Origin: an uncultured Acidobacteriota bacterium
GTDB lineage: Bacteria; Acidobacteriota; Vicinamibacteria; Marinacidobacterales; SMYC01
Direction of reading: 5' to 3'
Assembly: GCA_964553925.1 (NCBI GenBank)
Contig: CAZKNR010000182.1
Location: 18,132 to 82,131, forward strand
DNA: 64,000 nt
Part shown: piece after piece, positions 4,446-55,629 of the stretch
Numbering within the stretch: position 1 is the stretch's first letter
Layout of the letters: every line of letters starts with the position of its first letter
Translations under genes and position numbers: made by a program
The notes under the pieces: generated by a model
Seen by the model: the letters and a program-made list of their open reading frames with translations, nothing else
Told to the model about the DNA's origin: nothing
The model's database searches: none

Positions 4446-5551
4446 TGGCGCATGACGTCGGACCACATGGCGATGGGGTTCCGCAGAGTACCGATGCCTT
4501 CGACCGAGCACTCCGCCACGTCTCCCGGCTTCATGAAAATCGGAGGCACCCGGGCCATCCCAACACCCGAGGGAGTCCCGGTCGCGATGACGTCGCCGGG
4601 CTGAAGAATGATGTTGTTCGACACGAAATGCAGGAGCTCGTCGATAGAGTGCTGCATCAGCGAAGTCGACGCGTCCTGCATTCTCTTGCCCGAGAGGTCG
4701 AACCAGATATGGAGCTTATGGGGGTCGGCGATGAACTCCTTGGGCACGATGAACGGGCCGAGAGGGGCGAAGGTGTCCGTGCTCTTCCACACGAGCCAAT
4801 CGGACCCGTAGCGATTGTCGCCGCGGCCTTCGCGGTCTCCCACGTCGTTCATGAGGGTGTAGCCGAATACGTGCTCGCGCGCCCGGTCGATAGGGACGTG
4901 GCTCGCGGGCTTTCCGATGACGACGGCGAACTCGCACTCCCAGTCGAGCTGCTCCCGCTTGGGCTTCATCAGGATCGGGGATTCGTGGCCGATGACGATC
5001 CGCGGCGGCTTGAAGAAGAGGTAGGGGTTCTGCCGCCGATCGCCGGGCTTGCGCTCCCAGAAGAAGTCCATGGAGACCGGAGCGTCGTCGATGGCTTTCG
5101 AGTCCGACATCTGAGCCGGGACGCCGGTCGTCATCTCCTGGGCGTGGGCCCAGTAGTTCAACGCGGCGGCGAGGATCACTCCGGGCTCGACCGGGGGAAA
5201 CACGTCGAGCTCCGCGAGGTCGTGGATATAGACGGGTCGGTCGGCGCTTTCCAGGCCGCCGACAAGTCGGTCAACGATCGCATGAATCCGCTCCTTCAGC
5301 CCGTACTCGTAGCGGCCGATTAGGTCTTTCATGTCCTCGGGCATGGGAAGCTTCACCCAGAGCGGCTCCCGTCGTTCGAGGGATGCATTCGCGCGCGCGA
5401 AGTCCACGACATAGCGGTCGCGGAGGACGATGCCGACGAGCTCTTCTCCCCGGTACTCGAAGGTGCCGAGCTTGAACGGCTCCTCCGAGGCGGCGGCGAG
5501 ACGGGTCGCGGCGAACAAGAGGGTGAGCGCAAGAACGGTCTTCGTCATCAT
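4442..5551 (-). CDS. Fumarylacetoacetate hydrolase (FAH) family protein with an N-terminal Sec signal peptide.
   Basis: The C-terminal FAH catalytic domain has an HpcE/2-keto-4-pentenoate-hydratase-like signature. The N-terminus is MMTKTVLALTLLFAATRLAAASE. The gene is translationally coupled (ATGA) to the downstream amidohydrolase. Confidence 0.8.
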   Translation of the reverse strand: MMTKTVLALTLLFAATRLAAASEEPFKLGTFEYRGEELVGIVLRDRYVVDFARANASLERREPLWVKLPMPEDMKDLIGRYEYGLKERIHAIVDRLVGGLESADRPVYIHDLAELDVFPPVEPGVILAAALNYWAHAQEMTTGVPAQMSDSKAIDDAPVSMDFFWERKPGDRRQNPYLFFKPPRIVIGHESPILMKPKREQLDWECEFAVVIGKPASHVPIDRAREHVFGYTLMNDVGDREGRGDNRYGSDWLVWKSTDTFAPLGPFIVPKEFIADPHKLHIWFDLSGKRMQDASTSLMQHSIDELLHFVSNNIILQPGDVIATGTPSGVGMARVPPIFMKPGDVAECSVEGIGTLRNPIAMWSDVMRQ

Positions 5552-27906: not shown

Positions 27907-28926
27907 GTGGCCGCGTTCCGATTCTATTTCACACTCTCTGTGCTCTCGATTTCCTCTCCGGCCCTCGCCCAGCCGCGGACTCATGCGCTGAAAGCGGCGC
28001 CCGACACCGTCGTCTGGGGCTACTACGACGCTTCGGTTCCACCGGTGCTCACCGTGGATTCGGGCGACATCGTCGACGTCGAGACGATGGTAACCGGCGC
28101 GCGCTTGTCTCGAGCGCTCGGAGTACCCGAGGAGTCGATACGTCCCGACATGGTCGTGATGGACGAGAAGGTGAAGCAGGAAGGACCGCACCTTCTCGTG
28201 GGGCCGATCGCGGTCCGGGGTGCCGCACCCGGCAGCGTTCTCGAGATCCGGATCCTCGAGATGGGCATCGTCGATCCGTGGGCGGTCAATCTCTTTCGGC
28301 CCGGGTCGGGAGCGCTCCCGAAGCTCTTCCCCTATCAAGGGACGAAGTTCGTGCGCCTCGATCTTGAGAGAAACGTGGCCCTGTTCGCGCCCGGAGTCGA
28401 GGTTCCTTTGCGGCCGTTCTTCGGAAGCCTCGGAGTCGCGCCGCCTCCCGTCGTTGGGAGGATCGGAAGCGGTCCGCCCGGTTACCACACGGGGAACCTC
28501 GACAACAAAGAGCTCACCGCCGGGGCCACGCTCTACGTTCCCGTGCACGTCAAGGACGCGCTTCTGTTCATCGGCGATGGACACGCCGCGCAGGGCGATG
28601 GTGAGGTCGACGGCACGGCGCTCGAAGCCTCGCTCAAGGGGAGGCTGCAGCTCGTCGTGAGGAATGACATGAAGCTCCACTGGCCTCGAGCGGAAACGGA
28701 GGAGCACTACATCACGATGGGTCTCGATCCCGATCTCGACGTGGCGGTCGAGATGGCGGTGGCGGAGATGGTGGACTACCTGGTCCGCGAGCGCGGGCTC
28801 AGCCGAGACGACGCCTATATACTCGCAAGCGCCGCCGTAGACCTGAGGGTCACGCAGGTGGTGGACGGCACCAAAGGCATCCACGCCCTTCTGCCGAAAA
28901 ACATCTTCGTGGGAGGAAATCGATGA
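27907..28926 (+). CDS. Acetamidase/formamidase family amidase (FmdA/AmdA) with a signal peptide.
   Basis: The FmdA_AmdA fold spans the protein. The start is GTG, after AAAAGGAGG. Confidence 0.8.
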   Translation: MAAFRFYFTLSVLSISSPALAQPRTHALKAAPDTVVWGYYDASVPPVLTVDSGDIVDVETMVTGARLSRALGVPEESIRPDMVVMDEKVKQEGPHLLVGPIAVRGAAPGSVLEIRILEMGIVDPWAVNLFRPGSGALPKLFPYQGTKFVRLDLERNVALFAPGVEVPLRPFFGSLGVAPPPVVGRIGSGPPGYHTGNLDNKELTAGATLYVPVHVKDALLFIGDGHAAQGDGEVDGTALEASLKGRLQLVVRNDMKLHWPRAETEEHYITMGLDPDLDVAVEMAVAEMVDYLVRERGLSRDDAYILASAAVDLRVTQVVDGTKGIHALLPKNIFVGGNR

Positions 28927-30272
28927 TCGCTCTCTGGTTGCTGCTCTCGATCGAAGTTCCCCTGGCCGAGCACGCGGAGCGCCGGGAGCGCCTGATGACC
29001 GACTTTCCCGACGGAATCGTCCTGGTCCACGCTCGATCGAGTCCCTCGTCTCTCGGTGAGCCCTCGTTCAAGCAGGACGCAAACTTTCTCTACTTCACGG
29101 GGCTTCCAAGCCAGCCGGCGGCAATCCTCGCTCTCGATGGCCCTAGAAAAGAGTCGCTCCTTTTCGTCCCTCAGGCGCCGCTCCTGTTCGGGGCCAGGGT
29201 CGAAGATGTAAGCCTCACGCCGGGCGAGGACTCAGCCCGCGCTCACGGCTTCTCCCGGGTCGAGCCCTGGGAGAGCTTCCTACCTTATATAAAGAAGCGG
29301 ATCTCCGAGGGAGTCGGGAAGCTCTATCTGGACGAGGCGAGGAGCGCGGAGTTTCCGGGCAACCCGGAGCCGATGTTGCCGGTCTCGGGCGACAAGCTCC
29401 TCTGGCGCCGGTCGGTGGAAGCGGCGTTTCCCGGGATCGAGATCGCTTCCGCGGAAGGGGAGATCCGGGCGATGCGGTGGGCGAAGTCGAAGGCGGAAGT
29501 GGAAGTTCTTCGGGAGGTGGCGAGAGCGTCGTCGTCGGCGCTCCTCGCGGGACTCCGAGCCGTGAATGTCGGCAAGAGCCAGCGGCACTCGGAGGCCGCG
29601 GTAGTAAGCGCCTGCTTCGAGGCCGGCGCCACAGCACCCTCCTTCTGGCCGTGGACGATGTCGGGCGCGAACGCGCATGCCAGACACCTCGTTCGTTCTT
29701 TCTTCGACTACGAGCATCTCAACCGCGTGATGAAGGACGGGGAGCTGGTTCGGATGGACGTGGGGTGCGCCCTCGGCTATTACGAGGGGGACGTCGGCCG
29801 CACCGTGCCCGTTTCCGGCACGTTCAACGCGGACCAGCGGGAAACGCTGGACCTCCTCGTTCGCGCCTATCGCGCAGGGCTCGGAGCCATGAAGGGGGGA
29901 GTGACGCTCGAGACCGTCATGGCGCGGGCTCGCTCCGAGGTCGAGCGCGCAGAGGGCACGCTCGTGACCGAGTACGCCCGCCGCGCGGCCGCGATCCTGG
30001 TCCGGGCGCCGCTTCGGGAAACGTGGCACATTCACGGCGTCGGGCTCGATGGAGGGGAGACGGGGACCGACACGCTGGAAGTCGGCTCGGTCGTTGCGTT
30101 CGAGCCGATGTTCGCCGTCGACGACGATGCCTACTACATGGAGGATATGATCCTCGTGACCGAGACGGGCCACGAGATCCTGACCGAGGGATTGCCCTAC
30201 AGCGCGGCGGAGATCGAATCGGTGATGAAGGGGTCCCAGCGGGTCAAGAACGGCGAGGCCGATCCAAATTGA
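28923..30272 (+). CDS. M24-family metallopeptidase (Xaa-Pro aminopeptidase-like) with a creatinase-type N-terminal domain.
   Basis: A pita-bread-fold C-terminal domain with metal ligands is present. The start overlaps the upstream stop as ATGA. Confidence 0.8.
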   Translation: MIALWLLLSIEVPLAEHAERRERLMTDFPDGIVLVHARSSPSSLGEPSFKQDANFLYFTGLPSQPAAILALDGPRKESLLFVPQAPLLFGARVEDVSLTPGEDSARAHGFSRVEPWESFLPYIKKRISEGVGKLYLDEARSAEFPGNPEPMLPVSGDKLLWRRSVEAAFPGIEIASAEGEIRAMRWAKSKAEVEVLREVARASSSALLAGLRAVNVGKSQRHSEAAVVSACFEAGATAPSFWPWTMSGANAHARHLVRSFFDYEHLNRVMKDGELVRMDVGCALGYYEGDVGRTVPVSGTFNADQRETLDLLVRAYRAGLGAMKGGVTLETVMARARSEVERAEGTLVTEYARRAAAILVRAPLRETWHIHGVGLDGGETGTDTLEVGSVVAFEPMFAVDDDAYYMEDMILVTETGHEILTEGLPYSAAEIESVMKGSQRVKNGEADPN

Positions 30273-31617
30273 GTCGTTTCAACATCGAGCGTACCGTTCC
30301 TCCCGGGTCTGAAGAACGGCCTCGCCCCACTTCTCCGAGAAGGCGCGCCGCCTTGGTGGGACTTCCTCCGGCACGGGCGAGCGCCTCTTCGAGGGCCACG
30401 CGCTCGACTTCGTCGACGAGCCTTCTCAGGTTCATGGTGCCGGCCTCGATGCGCCGAGCGATGGCGGCGCGATCGACGAGGCCGGGCTCCGCGAGCCCGG
30501 ACGACGGTTGTGACCCGAGGACGCGCTTCGGGAGATCGGAAAGAAGAAGCTCCTCGCCCGAGCGTTTGTAGACCAGAGCTTCGTAGAGAACGTTCCGGAG
30601 CTCGCGCACGTTTCCCGGCCAGGAGTACGAACCGAGCGCCTCGAGAGCGCGAGGGCTCACCCGTTGGACGCGGCCGCGCCGGGCTCCGTCGGGCTCATCG
30701 CGGTAGAACTTCGCGAGAAAGTGGGCGACGAGATCTCCGAGATCCTCGAGCCGGTCGCGCAGTCGAGGGAGCTGGATGGAAACGATGGCGAGCCTCTCGT
30801 AGAGATCGGCTCCGAAGAGGCCCGCCTCGATGAGCCGGGGGAGATCGCGGTTGGTGGCGGCGATGATGCGAAAGTCCACCTCGTGCCACACGTTTTCTCC
30901 GAGCCGGCTCACGACACGATCCTGCACCACCCGCAGGAGCTTGACCTGGAGCGAGAGCGGTGTGTCGTCGATCTCATCGAGGAAGACCGAGCCGCCCTCC
31001 GCCGCCACCAGGAGGCCTTCATAGCGCTGGCTCGCGCCCGAGAAGGCGCCGCGGGCGTATCCGAAGAGCTCTGCCTCCATGAGCTCGTTGGGAATCGCGG
31101 CGCAGTTGATGGGAATGAAGCGGTGGCCTTTGCGGTGGGACCAGTCGTGGATGAGCCGGGCGCAGACTTCTTTTCCCGTTCCCGTCTCCCCGGTCAGGAG
31201 CACCGGCATCGAGGTCTCGGCCGCGCGCGACACCTGGTCCAGGACTCTCTCCGTGGTCTTGCTCTTTCCCACGAAGAGCTCGGTTCGGGCGGGCGGACGG
31301 GGAGTCGAGAGGAGCTCTCTCAGCCGGCGCTCGATCTGGAGGGCGGCGTCTTTCGAGTCGAGGGAGAGGACGTCGTAGGCCCCTTTCTGGACCGCTTCGA
31401 TCGCCTGGTTCTGGGACACGGCTCGTTTCGAGACCCAGAACCAGGGAAGGGCGTCCCCGGGAGGACGAGGGTCGTCGTTCGCCCGCGCGGTATAAAGTAC
31501 CCGCGCCACCGCTTCCGCCTTTCCCGCAGTCAGATCGAAGCCGCGGTCGGCGAGCTTCGATACCAGCTCCGGAGGCGGGGGAGGGCCCGCCCAATCGATC
31601 GCGTAGCGCCGCGCCAT
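30244..31617 (-). CDS. Sigma-54-dependent transcriptional activator (enhancer-binding protein) with a degenerate receiver-like N-terminal domain and a C-terminal HTH.
   Basis: The AAA+ sigma-54 interaction domain carries Walker A (GETGTGKE) and a GAFSGA variant of the GAFTGA loop. A Fis-type HTH lies at the C-terminus. The ATG is at 31617. Confidence 0.85.
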   Translation of the reverse strand: MARRYAIDWAGPPPPPELVSKLADRGFDLTAGKAEAVARVLYTARANDDPRPPGDALPWFWVSKRAVSQNQAIEAVQKGAYDVLSLDSKDAALQIERRLRELLSTPRPPARTELFVGKSKTTERVLDQVSRAAETSMPVLLTGETGTGKEVCARLIHDWSHRKGHRFIPINCAAIPNELMEAELFGYARGAFSGASQRYEGLLVAAEGGSVFLDEIDDTPLSLQVKLLRVVQDRVVSRLGENVWHEVDFRIIAATNRDLPRLIEAGLFGADLYERLAIVSIQLPRLRDRLEDLGDLVAHFLAKFYRDEPDGARRGRVQRVSPRALEALGSYSWPGNVRELRNVLYEALVYKRSGEELLLSDLPKRVLGSQPSSGLAEPGLVDRAAIARRIEAGTMNLRRLVDEVERVALEEALARAGGSPTKAARLLGEVGRGRSSDPGGTVRSMLKRLNLDRPRRS

Positions 31618-31620
31618 GGT

Positions 31621-31660
31621 CGTATTAAAACACGAATTGGAACGTAATAAAATACGTACC
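31621..31660. promoter_or_regulatory. AT-rich inverted-repeat block, a candidate enhancer (UAS) or IHF site.
   Basis: The sequence CGTATT ... AATACG plus a TACGTA palindrome lies in a 42%-GC island inside a 68%-GC genome. It sits between the divergent activator and flotillin genes. Confidence 0.4.
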
Positions 31661-31706
31661 AAAACTCCAGGATGCGAGATCTTCAGGGAAAAGGGCCAAG
31701 TCCTAC

Positions 31707-31722
31707 TGGCACGTGCCGTGCA
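31707..31722 (+). promoter_or_regulatory. Sigma-54 (-24/-12) promoter, TGGCACG-tgcc-GTGCA.
   Basis: The GG-N10-GC spacing is correct. The site lies 31 nt upstream of the AAGGAGG Shine-Dalgarno of the flotillin gene. Confidence 0.55.
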
Positions 31723-31752
31723 TTTCTGGATCGGTGAAACAAGGAGGGTCGC

Positions 31753-33570
31753 ATGTTAGCAATCGGAAGTTGGCCTACCATTTTGATCTATGGCGGGCTC
31801 GCCCTGGTCGTTCTCTCGCTCTTGCTCTGGGTGAGCGCTCGCTTCATCCGCGAGGACGAGTCGGGTCTCGTCATCAAGCGGTTCGGTCCGCTTCTTCCCC
31901 CGGGCCGGATCGTCGCGATGAGCGGTGAGGCGGGCTATCAGGCGAAAATACTGAACCCCGGGATCCACTTCCCGATGTGGCGATGGCGCTACAAGATCGT
32001 GAGAGTTCCGCTGGTGGTCGTGAGTCCCGGGGAGATCGCTCTGGTGGTGGCCGCGGACGGCGCTGCCATTCCTTCGGAACGTGTGTTGGCGAAAGAGGTG
32101 CGATGCGATCAATTCCAGGATGCGGATGCCTTTCTCCGGAACGGAGGAGAGCGGGGACGCCAGCTCGCCTTCGTGACCGCCGGGAGCTACCGGATCAACC
32201 CGGCGCTGTTCGAGGTCGTGATTTCCGAGAGGGCGGGCCAATACGGTCTTTCGCGCGAGTCGCTCGACGTCTACCAGATGCCGCCGGATCGGGTTGGGAT
32301 CGTGACCGTTCTCGACGGTCGTCCCATCGTCTCCGGCGATCTCGCGGGGCCGATCGTTGCCGGACACGACAGCTTTCAACGGGGCCAGGCGTTCATCGAC
32401 TCCGGCGGATGCCGCGGGCTTCAGGAGCAGGTGCTGCTCTCCGGCGCCTGGAACCTGAATCCCTGGTTCGTGAAGGTCGAGCAGATTCCCTTGACCGAGA
32501 TTGGAATCGGCTACGTCGGAGTGGTGGTGAGCTACGTGGGAAAGGAGCACCTCGACGTCTCGGGCGATGCATTCACCCACGGCGATCTGGTCGAGCGGGG
32601 ACGAAAGGGAGTGTGGGTCGAGCCGCTCCTCCCGGGAAAGCACCCGGTCAACACCCGGGTCATGAAAGTCGAGCTGGTGCCCACGACCAACATCGTCCTC
32701 AACTGGGCTTCGCGGACGGAGGCCCATCACTATGACGAGCGACTGTCTTCGATCAACGTCCGCTCGAAGGACGGCTTCTCCTTCAGCCTCGACGTCTCCC
32801 AGATCATCCATATCGGGATGAAAAACGCCCCGAGAGTGATCTCGCGCGTCGGGTCGATGCAGAATCTCGTGGACCACGTGCTCCAGCCGACCGTCGGGAA
32901 CTACTTCCGCAACTCGGCGCAGCAGGTCACGGTCCTGGAGTTCCTGAACGCTCGGAGCGACCGTCAGCGGGAGGCCTTCGAAAGAATCCAGGAGGCGGTT
33001 TTGGCCTACGACGTGGAGTGCATCGACACTCTCATCGGCGACATCGTGCCCCCGCCCGAGCTGATGAAGACCCAGACCGATCGGAAGATCGCCGAGGAGC
33101 TCACCACGACCTACCAGGCGCAGCGCAGCGCCCAGATCGAGCGGCAGACGCTCGAGCGCGAGACCGCCATCGCCAACATGCAAGCAGATGTGGTCCGGAG
33201 CGAACAGATGGTGCAAATCTCCGAGAAGAACGCTCTCGCCCGCGCCGAGGTCGGTAAGGGCGAAGCGGCTTTCGTTCGGGCCCAGGCCGAAGCCGAAGCC
33301 GCGTCGATGCGGATGAAGGGCGAAGCGGAAGCCGTGGCAATACGCGCGACCGGCTCAGCTCAGGCCGAAGCCTATCGGCTTGGACGCGAATCGCTGGGAG
33401 AGGCGGGCTACGTCGCCACCCAGATGGCCTCGATTCTCGGCCAGAACCGGGTCAAGCTCGTGCCCGACATCGCCGTCGGAGGAGACGGCAGCACCCGCCT
33501 TGCGGACGTGCTCATCGGAAAGATGCTCGCGGGGAGTATCCCGGACGCTTCCGCGCCCACCGCGAAGTAA
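31753..33570 (+). CDS. SPFH/band-7 (flotillin-like) membrane protein (605 aa).
   Basis: The product has an N-terminal transmembrane helix, an SPFH domain, and a long C-terminal coiled coil rich in EA repeats. Confidence 0.8.
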   Translation: MLAIGSWPTILIYGGLALVVLSLLLWVSARFIREDESGLVIKRFGPLLPPGRIVAMSGEAGYQAKILNPGIHFPMWRWRYKIVRVPLVVVSPGEIALVVAADGAAIPSERVLAKEVRCDQFQDADAFLRNGGERGRQLAFVTAGSYRINPALFEVVISERAGQYGLSRESLDVYQMPPDRVGIVTVLDGRPIVSGDLAGPIVAGHDSFQRGQAFIDSGGCRGLQEQVLLSGAWNLNPWFVKVEQIPLTEIGIGYVGVVVSYVGKEHLDVSGDAFTHGDLVERGRKGVWVEPLLPGKHPVNTRVMKVELVPTTNIVLNWASRTEAHHYDERLSSINVRSKDGFSFSLDVSQIIHIGMKNAPRVISRVGSMQNLVDHVLQPTVGNYFRNSAQQVTVLEFLNARSDRQREAFERIQEAVLAYDVECIDTLIGDIVPPPELMKTQTDRKIAEELTTTYQAQRSAQIERQTLERETAIANMQADVVRSEQMVQISEKNALARAEVGKGEAAFVRAQAEAEAASMRMKGEAEAVAIRATGSAQAEAYRLGRESLGEAGYVATQMASILGQNRVKLVPDIAVGGDGSTRLADVLIGKMLAGSIPDASAPTAK

Positions 33571-33576
33571 CGGATC

Positions 33577-33609
33577 GAGGGCCGGCTTCCGGCGAGGAGG
33601 CCGGCCCTC
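33577..33609 (+). terminator. GC-rich hairpin, a candidate intrinsic terminator.
   Basis: A 10-bp perfect stem (GAGGGCCGGC/GCCGGCCCTC) lies 7 nt after the flotillin stop, but the U-tract is weak. Confidence 0.4.
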
Positions 33610-55150: not shown

Positions 55151-55166
55151 TGGCACCCACCGTGCA
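55151..55166 (+). promoter_or_regulatory. Sigma-54 promoter, TGGCACC-cacc-GTGCA.
   Basis: The -24/-12 arrangement is almost identical to the flotillin promoter. It lies just upstream of the AAGGAGG and ATG of the CBS gene. Confidence 0.45.
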
Positions 55167-55185: not shown

Positions 55186-55629
55186 ATGGGACTCAAAGGA
55201 CTGATGAAGACTCAGCCTGCGACGCTCTCGCCCGGCGCGAGCGTACTCGAAGCCTGCCGGATCATGAGCGAGCGGAAGCTCAGCGCCGTTGCGGTGGTGG
55301 AGGAGGGGAAGCTGCGGGGCATCCTGACACAGGGCGACGTCCTCGCGCGGGTGGTGCTTTCCAAGCGGGACCCGGAGAAGGTCATGATCTCCGAGGTGAT
55401 GACCCAAGACGTCGTCACCATCACCGCGGAGCGTTCCTGCGGGGATGCGCTGCGTTTGATGGTGGAGCGCGGGCACAACGTTCTCCCGGTGATCGAGAAG
55501 GGTGGAGAAGAGGAGCTCGCGGGAATAATCACCCTCCCCGAGCTGCTGAAGAACGAGATCGATCACTTGGCGAACGAGCTCGACGCGGTGACGAGCTACT
55601 TCACCTCCGATGGCGCCGGCGGCGACTGA
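55186..55629 (+). CDS. CBS-domain pair protein (147 aa).
   Basis: The start is the ATG at 55186, after AAGGAGG. Tandem CBS domains are present. The upstream extension in the track is rejected. Confidence 0.8.
   Translation: MGLKGLMKTQPATLSPGASVLEACRIMSERKLSAVAVVEEGKLRGILTQGDVLARVVLSKRDPEKVMISEVMTQDVVTITAERSCGDALRLMVERGHNVLPVIEKGGEEELAGIITLPELLKNEIDHLANELDAVTSYFTSDGAGGD

Follow-up and report, generated by a model that had tools for sequence, protein, structure and literature searches.

A predicted sigma-54 activator and a divergent SPFH/flotillin-like gene are kept as a pair across four bacterial phyla

What controls a bacterial flotillin-like gene, and in response to what, is the question raised by a locus in a 64,000-nucleotide stretch of DNA (the window; contig CAZKNR010000182.1, positions 18,132 to 82,131, assembly GCA_964553925.1) from an uncultured Acidobacteriota bacterium. 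Two genes point away from each other across a 135-nt spacer. On the minus strand, 30244..31617 (coordinates including the stop codon) encodes a sigma-54 enhancer-binding protein of 457 aa, recognised from the list of open reading frames (ORFs), Pfam and orthologues, and on the plus strand, 31753-33570 encodes an SPFH/flotillin-like membrane protein of 605 aa with a Band_7 domain, weak flotillin matches and an internal repeat. A first-pass annotation had described this divergent pair, and all the elements that it listed were found in place. We consider it likely that the two genes form a self-contained module, in which the activator would have one dedicated, linked target, the divergent SPFH gene. 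Comparative computation establishes the pair, its promoter, the conservation and phasing of the sites between the genes, the pseudo-receiver fold of the activator and a riboswitch in a sister clade.

The two genes occur together well beyond this genome. We surveyed 80 SPFH loci with 6-kb flanks, taking one genome per species, and divided them into two groups by SPFH identity. In the close clade (59 loci, SPFH identity ~65-78%, with at least 65% as the limit), a full-length activator orthologue was present within the flanks of 51 loci, and some of the eight loci without it have little or no upstream sequence. The activator orthologues are 51-60% identical, N-terminal domain included, and the carriers of the pair belong to Vicinamibacterales, many Myxococcota and Rokubacteria. 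Cultivable organisms among them include Corallococcus carmarthensis and C. llansteffanensis (L051, L053), Hyalangium versicolor (L022) and Vitiosangium (L011). In 47 loci, the two genes diverge from start codons no more than ~740 nt apart, and in 39 the separation stays within 221 nt. No other neighbour of the window (the FmdA, M24, GNAT, DUF1440-like and PLD genes) is conserved in the 80 loci, therefore the conserved unit consists of exactly the activator and the SPFH gene. Reverse look-ups starting from activator homologues found the SPFH gene divergent and adjacent in 4/4 cases, which include one Gemmatimonadales-labelled contig and one long-read contig with a frameshifted SPFH gene. The pair is kept across Acidobacteriota, Myxococcota, Rokubacteria and Gemmatimonadota, and the synteny is strong; several Myxococcota genomes carry the two genes apart. 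Co-occurrence of the activator clade with SPFH genes had been named beforehand as the check to make on this pairing, and the pairing has passed it in both search directions. One of the surveyed loci, L002, is labelled 'uncultured Bifidobacterium sp.' and carries a Vicinamibacterales-type activator/SPFH locus, which is likely due to mislabelling or contamination.

The SPFH gene is preceded by a sigma-54-type promoter. The element TGGCACGTGCCGTGCA (31707..31722, plus strand; GG at 31708-09, GC at 31720-21) lies 30 nt before the ATG and matches the pattern TGGCAC-N6-TGCW exactly, as does only one other element in the 64 kb, of which the GC content is ~65%; when one mismatch was allowed, nine matches were found versus 2.9 expected. 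Transcription of the SPFH gene is predicted to start near 31733, and a ribosome-binding site read from the sequence, AAGGAGGG, follows at 31741..31748 (plus strand), with its GGAGG conserved in relatives. In the close clade, a GG-N10-GC element was found 20-60 nt upstream of the SPFH start in 50/57 loci, examples being TGGCAGGGCGGATGCA in many Myxococcota and TGGCCCAGCCGATGCA in Vicinamibacterales. The second, riboswitch-bearing group of loci served as a control, in which 3/21 reach the threshold, at scattered positions. The TGGCACG-GCC-TGCA letters are exact in two close relatives with SPFH proteins 87% and 92% identical to that of the window, while the flanking spacer drifts. It had been claimed from the letters that the only recognisable promoter of the flotillin-like gene is of the sigma-54 type; this conservation supports the claim, and a sigma-70 scan returned one weak match. 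The synteny over four phyla, seen in both search directions, the conserved -24/-12 element and the lack of any other conserved neighbour come close to refuting the idea that the genes are neighbours by chance, with the SPFH gene expressed constitutively from a sigma-70 promoter. In favour of this idea are the one weak sigma-70-like match and, in E. coli, a lack of induction of yqiK by stress, which PMC2636767 cites as unpublished observations. Elsewhere in the window, a second element fits the sigma-54 pattern exactly (TGGCACCCACCGTGCA) and is located at 55151-55166 (plus strand), 19 nt upstream of a ribosome-binding site and ATG. The gene behind it (55186-55629, plus strand), probably also dependent on sigma-54, codes for 147 aa in which Pfam finds tandem CBS domains (CBS, E 7e-28).

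The protein encoded on the other strand has the parts that activation of such a promoter calls for. Its ORF extends over 30244..31662 (minus strand), and we take the ATG at 31617 as the probable true start because the N-termini of the orthologues align there. The Pfam matches are Sigma54_activat, AAA_lid_14 and HTH_8. The first of these, the AAA+ sigma-54 interaction domain (PF00158, residues 116-282, 30772..31272, minus strand, E 2.2e-61), is aligned over 167/168 profile positions. Within it, the GAFTGA contact loop reads GAFSGA (residues 190-195, 31033-31050, minus strand, from the family alignment), a Thr-to-Ser variant that is nearly invariant among 33 orthologues; in PspF mutagenesis, this change reportedly keeps function. 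The C-terminus holds a Fis-type helix-turn-helix (HTH) of residues 402-449 (30271..30414, minus strand), with the HTH_8 match at residues 402-428 (26.2 bits versus a cut-off of 22). The intact AAA+ domain with its GAFSGA loop and the HTH that had been read from the letters are thus confirmed by profile matches. With these domains, the predicted upstream sites and a target promoter of the -24 GG/-12 GC type, the protein appears to be a genuine member of the NtrC family of enhancer-binding proteins, of the kind with a degenerate receiver. It scores far under all cut-offs of the NCBIfam equivalog models, those for PspF, NtrC and FlbD included: the two PspF models give 240 bits (cut-off 444) and 207 bits (cut-off 529), and the FlbD model gives 232 bits (cut-off 750). 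In a PADLOC search, only the AAA+/HTH part of the activator matched RtcR/PspF-like models and the SPFH protein matched none, therefore we see no link to anti-phage defence. A family-specific, nearly invariant insertion, LLGEVGRGxxxDPGGTVR (residues 425-449; 30271-30345, minus strand), lies between helix 2 and the recognition helix of the HTH. This insertion has a GRG core similar to an AT-hook, which might serve to read the AT-rich centre of the palindromes described below. An M24 aminopeptidase-P-like gene (28923-30272, plus strand) runs towards the activator gene, and their 3' ends overlap by 29 nt (30244-30272), which leaves no space for a terminator between them.

The sites through which the activator could act on the promoter were sought in the spacer, where GC content falls to 0.40 at 31610-31669 compared with ~0.65 elsewhere. 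The first-pass annotation had described here an AT-rich block, CGTATT-N24-AATACG with a TACGTA core, in the position of an upstream activating sequence (UAS) or a site for integration host factor (IHF). The hexamers CGTATT and AATACG (31621-26 and 31651-56) and the TACGTA (31653-58) are present; inverted repeats of 6 bp occur at chance level, with 20 pairs in 300 nt. The actual structure of the block is two tandem palindromes, CGTATTAAAACACG (31621-34) and CGTAATAAAATACG (31643-56), an arrangement that is unique in the window (0.4 expected by chance). Extended to 16 bp each, they give two predicted UAS 22 bp apart. Site 1, tCGTATTAAAACACGa (31620..31635), is centred at about -105, starts 2 nt from the activator ATG and is conserved in close relatives. 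Site 2, aCGTAATAAAATACGt (31642..31657), is centred at about -83, lies 58.5 bp from the -24 GG and is conserved in loci L081 and L082. A palindrome-constrained Gibbs sampler applied to 47 upstream regions returned a family motif of the same form, the 16-bp palindrome CnnnATTnnAATnnnG of ~14 bits, usually in two copies 21-23 bp apart, that is, two helical turns. Of the earlier description, the location of the block in the UAS position stands, whereas three of its details do not. CGTATT-N24-AATACG is rejected as a functional unit, being merely the outer halves of sites 1 and 2; the TACGTA core is not conserved, close relatives having TACGTC; and no convincing IHF consensus (WATCAANNNNTTR) was seen by eye between UAS and promoter in the window or in the alignments of relatives.

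We regard the palindromes as the predicted sites of the activator for the SPFH promoter because of their specificity, persistence, phasing and co-variation with the protein. As for specificity, sites of at least 12 bits number 76 in ~12 kb of promoter/start regions, 6 in 638 kb of flanks and 0 upstream of the SPFH gene in the riboswitch clade, an enrichment that is partly circular, the matrix having been trained on part of the promoter regions counted. The only sites outside the training set are those at the starts of activator genes that are separated from the SPFH gene, where a further copy was found in L012, L015, L024, L048, L039, L049, L038 and L017. As for persistence, palindromes stay upstream of the sigma-54 promoter of the SPFH gene at loci with the activator missing from the flanks (L008, L027, L028, L032), 2-4 kb off (L015, L023, L024) or downstream (L058), mostly in tandem; they are also kept at the SPFH promoter of L048, which has no adjacent activator. 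Measured from its centre, the proximal site lies 48.5-51.5, 57.5-62.5, 70.5-71.5 or 80.5-82.5 bp from the -24 GG, with one outlier otherwise, and these classes, ~10.5 bp apart and with the window value of 58.5 bp among them, were computed without correction for shared ancestry. Such quantisation in helical turns is as expected because the activator must face the polymerase. Finally, the type of site goes together with the residues that open HTH helix 2, which are GGSP for CGTAnT (the window included) and GGNA for CnnGATT; the co-variation, likewise uncorrected for ancestry, would fit direct readout. The AT-rich block is accordingly predicted, by comparison of sequences, to behave as an enhancer of the SPFH promoter.

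A further element was found between UAS and promoter. It consists of an A-tract and GGCC, GGGAAAAGGGCC (31686..31697), of which GAAAA..GG is conserved in close relatives, and palindromes of the form GAAAnCAGGCCTGnTTTC are located at the equivalent position in the Vicinamibacterales loci L002, L003, L004 and L006. The element misfits the IHF consensus and may represent an intrinsic bend, or the site of an architectural or second regulatory protein.

The position of site 1 bears on the control of the activator gene itself. In nearly all loci, those with separated genes included, site 1 starts 1-3 nt from the activator start codon, which leaves no room for a Shine-Dalgarno sequence. Read on the activator strand, the last letter of the AAT half of site 1 is 6-7 nt upstream of the first letter of the ATG, the -10 geometry of a leaderless transcript, and the 22-bp spacing of the two AT-rich cores is near that of -35 and -10 elements. 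From this geometry alone, the bound activator probably represses its own, likely leaderless, sigma-70 transcript, and site 1 is a probable operator for autoregulation. A precedent exists at pspA, where there are two UAS and where PspF on the enhancer represses the sigma-70 promoter of its own gene (PMC3709507). The same features could be taken to mean that the AT-rich block is only the sigma-70 promoter or leader of the activator, and that the SPFH promoter is activated from elsewhere or not by this activator: the block abuts the activator ATG, its AT-rich hexamers 22 bp apart look like -35/-10 elements, and a sigma-70-like match falls in it, though on the other strand. We judge this very unlikely, since the tandem palindromes are kept at SPFH promoters that have no adjacent activator (L008, L015, L024, L027, L032, L058), they are spaced from the -24 element in steps of a helical turn, and palindromic symmetry marks binding sites of dimers, not promoters.

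If the activator works on this promoter, its own input has to be considered, and here the N-terminal domain is informative. Residues 1 to ~105 (31303..31617, minus strand) have a CheY-like alpha/beta fold without alpha2, alpha3 and the phospho-acceptor pocket, the elements running beta1-alpha1-beta2-beta3-beta4-alpha4-beta5-alpha5, and a flexible Pro-rich linker (residues 104-118) connects them to the AAA+ domain. When receiver positions are assigned by the order of secondary-structure elements, without residue-level superposition, beta1 is followed by WxGxxPP where a receiver would have the acidic pair, T or A stands at the end of beta3 in place of the phospho-acceptor Asp, and beta5 reads GAYDVxSL, without the conserved Lys. 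Among 46 orthologues, the domain has no invariant Asp, Thr or Lys; the sole invariant residues are W9, G11, W59, W61, A75, G79, A80 and R98. Residues 1-117 have no Pfam match even at E <= 10, PF00072 included, and PF00072 is recorded for 0/120 of the activator homologues listed. Alignment with the NtrC receiver by hhalign gave a probability of 0.2% and no meaningful match, and phmmer found 62 matches among 1.84 billion representatives of an unannotated library, mostly short proteins of about the length of the domain. The N-terminal domain keeps the fold of a receiver but none of the phospho-acceptor residues, in agreement with the degenerate receiver-like domain that had been suggested for it, and judged from these residues, canonical phosphorylation cannot operate it.

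These results bear directly on a rival view, in which the activator would be a conventional response regulator of a two-component system and receive its phosphate from an unlinked histidine kinase. The receiver fold is present, the source annotations read 'NtrC family response regulator', and orphan response regulators are common in Myxococcota. Nevertheless, such a role is highly improbable for a domain that lacks the beta3 Asp, the beta1 acidic pair, the beta5 Lys and both alpha2 and alpha3, that goes unmatched by PF00072 at E <= 10 and in the 120 listed homologues, that has only 62 phmmer matches among the 1.84 billion representatives, and that has no kinase gene conserved nearby. Because the acidic pocket is replaced by invariant Trp and Gly, a partner protein or ligand must control the activator; the obvious guess is that it acts at the Trp-lined former pocket.

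The presumed target of this control is a member of a large family. The SPFH family has thousands of homologues, of which the best 120 are 71-100% identical and mostly from Vicinamibacterales; they are annotated as 'YqiK' (COG2268) or 'SPFH domain-containing protein', and one annotation source names the window protein YqiK/COG2268. Its only Pfam match is Band_7 (PF01145, residues 253-460, 32509-33132, E 1.6e-23), and an NCBIfam search returned no match. With the family profile, weak matches were obtained to human flotillin-1 and flotillin-2 in their coiled-coil region (PDB sequences, E 0.0009-0.004), and QmcA reached E 0.11. The protein has an N-terminal membrane anchor, with a hydrophobic stretch at residues 5-28 and a helix predicted at residues 2-28 (predicted local distance difference test, pLDDT, of 68-85). 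Arg residues come right after this single transmembrane helix and, by the positive-inside rule, the bulk of the protein would be cytoplasmic. Between anchor and Band_7, an N-terminal extension of ~220 aa (residues 30-252; 31840-32508, plus strand) repeats the first beta-module of the SPFH domain (BLASTP E 0.003); residues 1-266 have no Pfam match at E <= 10. The full-length AlphaFold2 model (34 sequences; mean pLDDT 47, predicted template modelling score 0.27) is unusable because its alignment lacked diversity, all rows being more than 70% identical; in this low-confidence and otherwise poor model, a long C-terminal Ala/Glu-rich helix spans residues ~441-548 with pLDDT of ~70-76. There is no NfeD partner gene adjacent to the SPFH gene, whose neighbours are the M24 peptidase and GNAT acetyltransferase genes.

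The partner acting on the activator could be the SPFH protein itself. In such a closed, Psp-like feedback, its cytoplasmic part or its assembly state would bind the Trp-rich pseudo-receiver and inactivate the activator, and membrane or turgor stress would recruit the SPFH protein and free the activator. This would extend the two-gene module and does not contradict it. Degenerate-receiver activators are known to be under partner proteins, FlbD under FliX and FleQ under FleN, and the SPFH gene, being the sole gene conserved with the activator, is the likeliest source of a dedicated partner. The receiver pocket is replaced by the invariant W9, W59 and W61, and the bulk of the SPFH protein is expected on the cytoplasmic side; the Trp residues may be compared with W56, through which PspA touches PspF (PMC3709507). 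However, such a contact between the SPFH protein and the activator would be conjectural: the analogy is loose, since PspF lacks an N-terminal domain, modelling of the full-length SPFH protein failed (pLDDT 47), and the unlinked genes of several Myxococcota genomes are unfavourable for a tight stoichiometric pair. We therefore hold this feedback to be unlikely.

An indication of the physiological context of the two-gene module comes from the sister clade, 21 loci with SPFH proteins ~60% identical over the full length. They originate from Verrucomicrobiota, Binatia, Acidoferrum, Pyrinomonadaceae, Limnocylindria, a Haliangiales metagenome-assembled genome (MAG), a cyanobacterium and a Chloroflexia MAG. 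The activator and the palindromes were found in none of the 21 loci, nor was a positioned sigma-54 promoter. What is common to the regions upstream of these SPFH genes is a strongly conserved noncoding block, which Rfam identifies as the cyclic di-AMP (c-di-AMP) riboswitch (ydaO/yuaA leader, RF00379), with scores of 50-65 bits versus the gathering score of 38. A nhmmer profile located the riboswitch upstream of the SPFH gene in 19/21 loci (L057, L059-L072, L075, L076, L079, L080; for example L060:5708-5872, L065:5719-5887 and L068:2923-3091). In an Rfam scan of the whole window, no family reached the gathering score, RF00379 included. A CTCC-containing segment 3' of the aptamer could pair with the GGAG of the ribosome-binding site, which would suggest translational control in this clade; in the window, control would be transcriptional, via sigma-54 and a protein activator. 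The same SPFH effector thus appears, from these cis-elements, to be under dedicated control in both clades. The c-di-AMP riboswitch class controls, among its targets, potassium and osmolyte transport and cell-wall genes. Because orthologous SPFH genes elsewhere carry this riboswitch, the physiological theme of the locus is, by analogy, most likely membrane, osmotic or envelope homeostasis. The riboswitch offers indirect but independent support for an effector of the membrane-stress type, to which the regulation of B. subtilis floT by SigW, described below, would add a further parallel. Two loci of this clade deserve a remark. L071 is labelled 'Chitinophaga pinensis' and has a riboswitch-type locus otherwise seen mainly in Verrucomicrobiota, likely through mislabelling or contamination. 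In L075, a Pyrinomonadaceae contig, a SAM-I riboswitch (RF00162, 78 bits) lies 3' of the SPFH gene at 5166-5289 and is unrelated.

Taken together, we propose the following mechanism for the two-gene module. HTH dimers of the activator would bind the two 16-bp palindromes, 22 bp apart and centred at about -83 and -105, and the AAA+ ring would contact the closed sigma-54 holoenzyme at TGGCAC-N5-GTGCA (31707-31722), whereupon the promoter would open and the SPFH mRNA begin near 31733. The bound activator would at the same time shut off its own likely leaderless sigma-70 transcript, as PspF does. The input would not involve phosphorylation; a partner protein or ligand would act on the pseudo-receiver, and the response would serve membrane, osmotic or envelope homeostasis. 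Within this scheme, the direct binding, the autoregulation, the lack of a leader on the activator mRNA, the kind of signal and what the SPFH protein does are inferred.

Several points weigh against this proposal. It is wholly comparative and predictive for binding, the start site and rpoN dependence. In seven close-clade loci, a -24/-12 element could not be recognised in the 160 nt examined, the letters at -12 are GTGCA or ATGCA where the consensus is TTGCA, and the single weak match of the sigma-70 scan (9/12 positions, on the SPFH strand) derives from the AT-rich cores of the two UAS. The window sites, which are exactly conserved in close relatives, belong to the CGTAnT subtype that Kofleriaceae-type loci also have; they score low on the family matrix (7.5 bits for site 2 and less than 6 bits for site 1), therefore their match rests mainly on the close relatives and the spacing. 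To these must be added the partial circularity of the site enrichment and the shared ancestry behind the phasing and the co-variation, as noted above. Furthermore, the spacer has no IHF consensus though the enhancer is just 50-60 bp from the -24 element, and the functional theme derives from a riboswitch of a different clade.

How far does the module correspond to known systems? The first-pass annotation had likened it to PspF/pspA. As in Psp, a sigma-54 activator gene is divergent from a single membrane-associated effector operon, and control would proceed without phosphorylation; moreover, the two shared intergenic UAS double as the operator of the activator in Psp, and here the sites start 2 nt from its ATG. 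The architecture of divergent genes with two UAS overlapping the activator start therefore holds. The likeness ends at the proteins: PspF has no N-terminal regulatory domain, and the activator of the window has a pseudo-receiver of ~105 residues; the effector is of the SPFH/flotillin type (Band_7 only), whereas that of Psp is PspA of the IM30/ESCRT-III family. Negative feedback by the effector and dependence on IHF likewise belong to Psp. With no PspA and an activator that is not of the PspF type, the module is not a member of the Psp system on the side of either protein. FlbD of Caulobacter and FleQ of Pseudomonas resemble the activator in being NtrC-type proteins with a receiver-like domain that lacks a working phospho-acceptor and is controlled by a partner or ligand. 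Their targets are flagellar or biofilm regulons, whereas here a single SPFH gene is the predicted target, and the domain of the window protein, with only 62 sequence matches, differs also in lacking alpha2 and alpha3. In B. subtilis, the yuaF-floT(yuaG)-yuaI operon is under the envelope-stress factor SigW, so that a flotillin-type gene is again under an alternative sigma factor, one tied to envelope, osmotic or alkaline stress (PMC2636767). In contrast to the locus described here, SigW is of the extracytoplasmic function type and works without an enhancer-binding protein; the Bacillus operon includes the NfeD partner gene yuaF, of a kind typical of FloT/YqiK operons (PMC2636767) and absent next to the SPFH gene of the window, and the window protein has the extra N-terminal region of ~220 aa.

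In the literature searched, a paper on SPFH evolution included and the coverage being incomplete, we found neither sigma-54 or enhancer-binding-protein control of an SPFH/flotillin gene nor a c-di-AMP riboswitch on such a gene, and a comparative study of sigma-54 (PMC3162934) has no mention of band 7, SPFH, stomatin or flotillin. The remark that the pairing is not a described system is consistent with this search. The circuit is of an ordinary type; it is the pairing of regulator and effector that is previously unreported in the literature searched, widely conserved and comparatively defined in its cis-elements. Among the sigma-54 activators with degenerate receivers, it provides a clean example with a single target, and the phasing of its enhancer can be read directly from comparative data. 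A bolder view, which we put forward only tentatively, is that of a second, PspA-independent response to membrane or turgor stress with feedback from effector to activator, in which sigma-54 and the c-di-AMP riboswitch would be interchangeable inputs, the former in Acidobacteriota, Myxococcota, Rokubacteria and Gemmatimonadota and the latter in Verrucomicrobiota, Binatia, Chloroflexota and others. If true, this would make osmotic and envelope homeostasis the setting of this flotillin family.

The mutants of E. coli yqiK and B. subtilis floT have few phenotypes (PMC2636767), and the pairing provides a way to learn what bacterial flotillins respond to. An SPFH family that is more than 70% identical across phyla comes here with a dedicated regulator, a defined promoter and predicted operator sites, and sister lineages add a riboswitch of known ligand, so that the question of its function becomes experimentally concrete.

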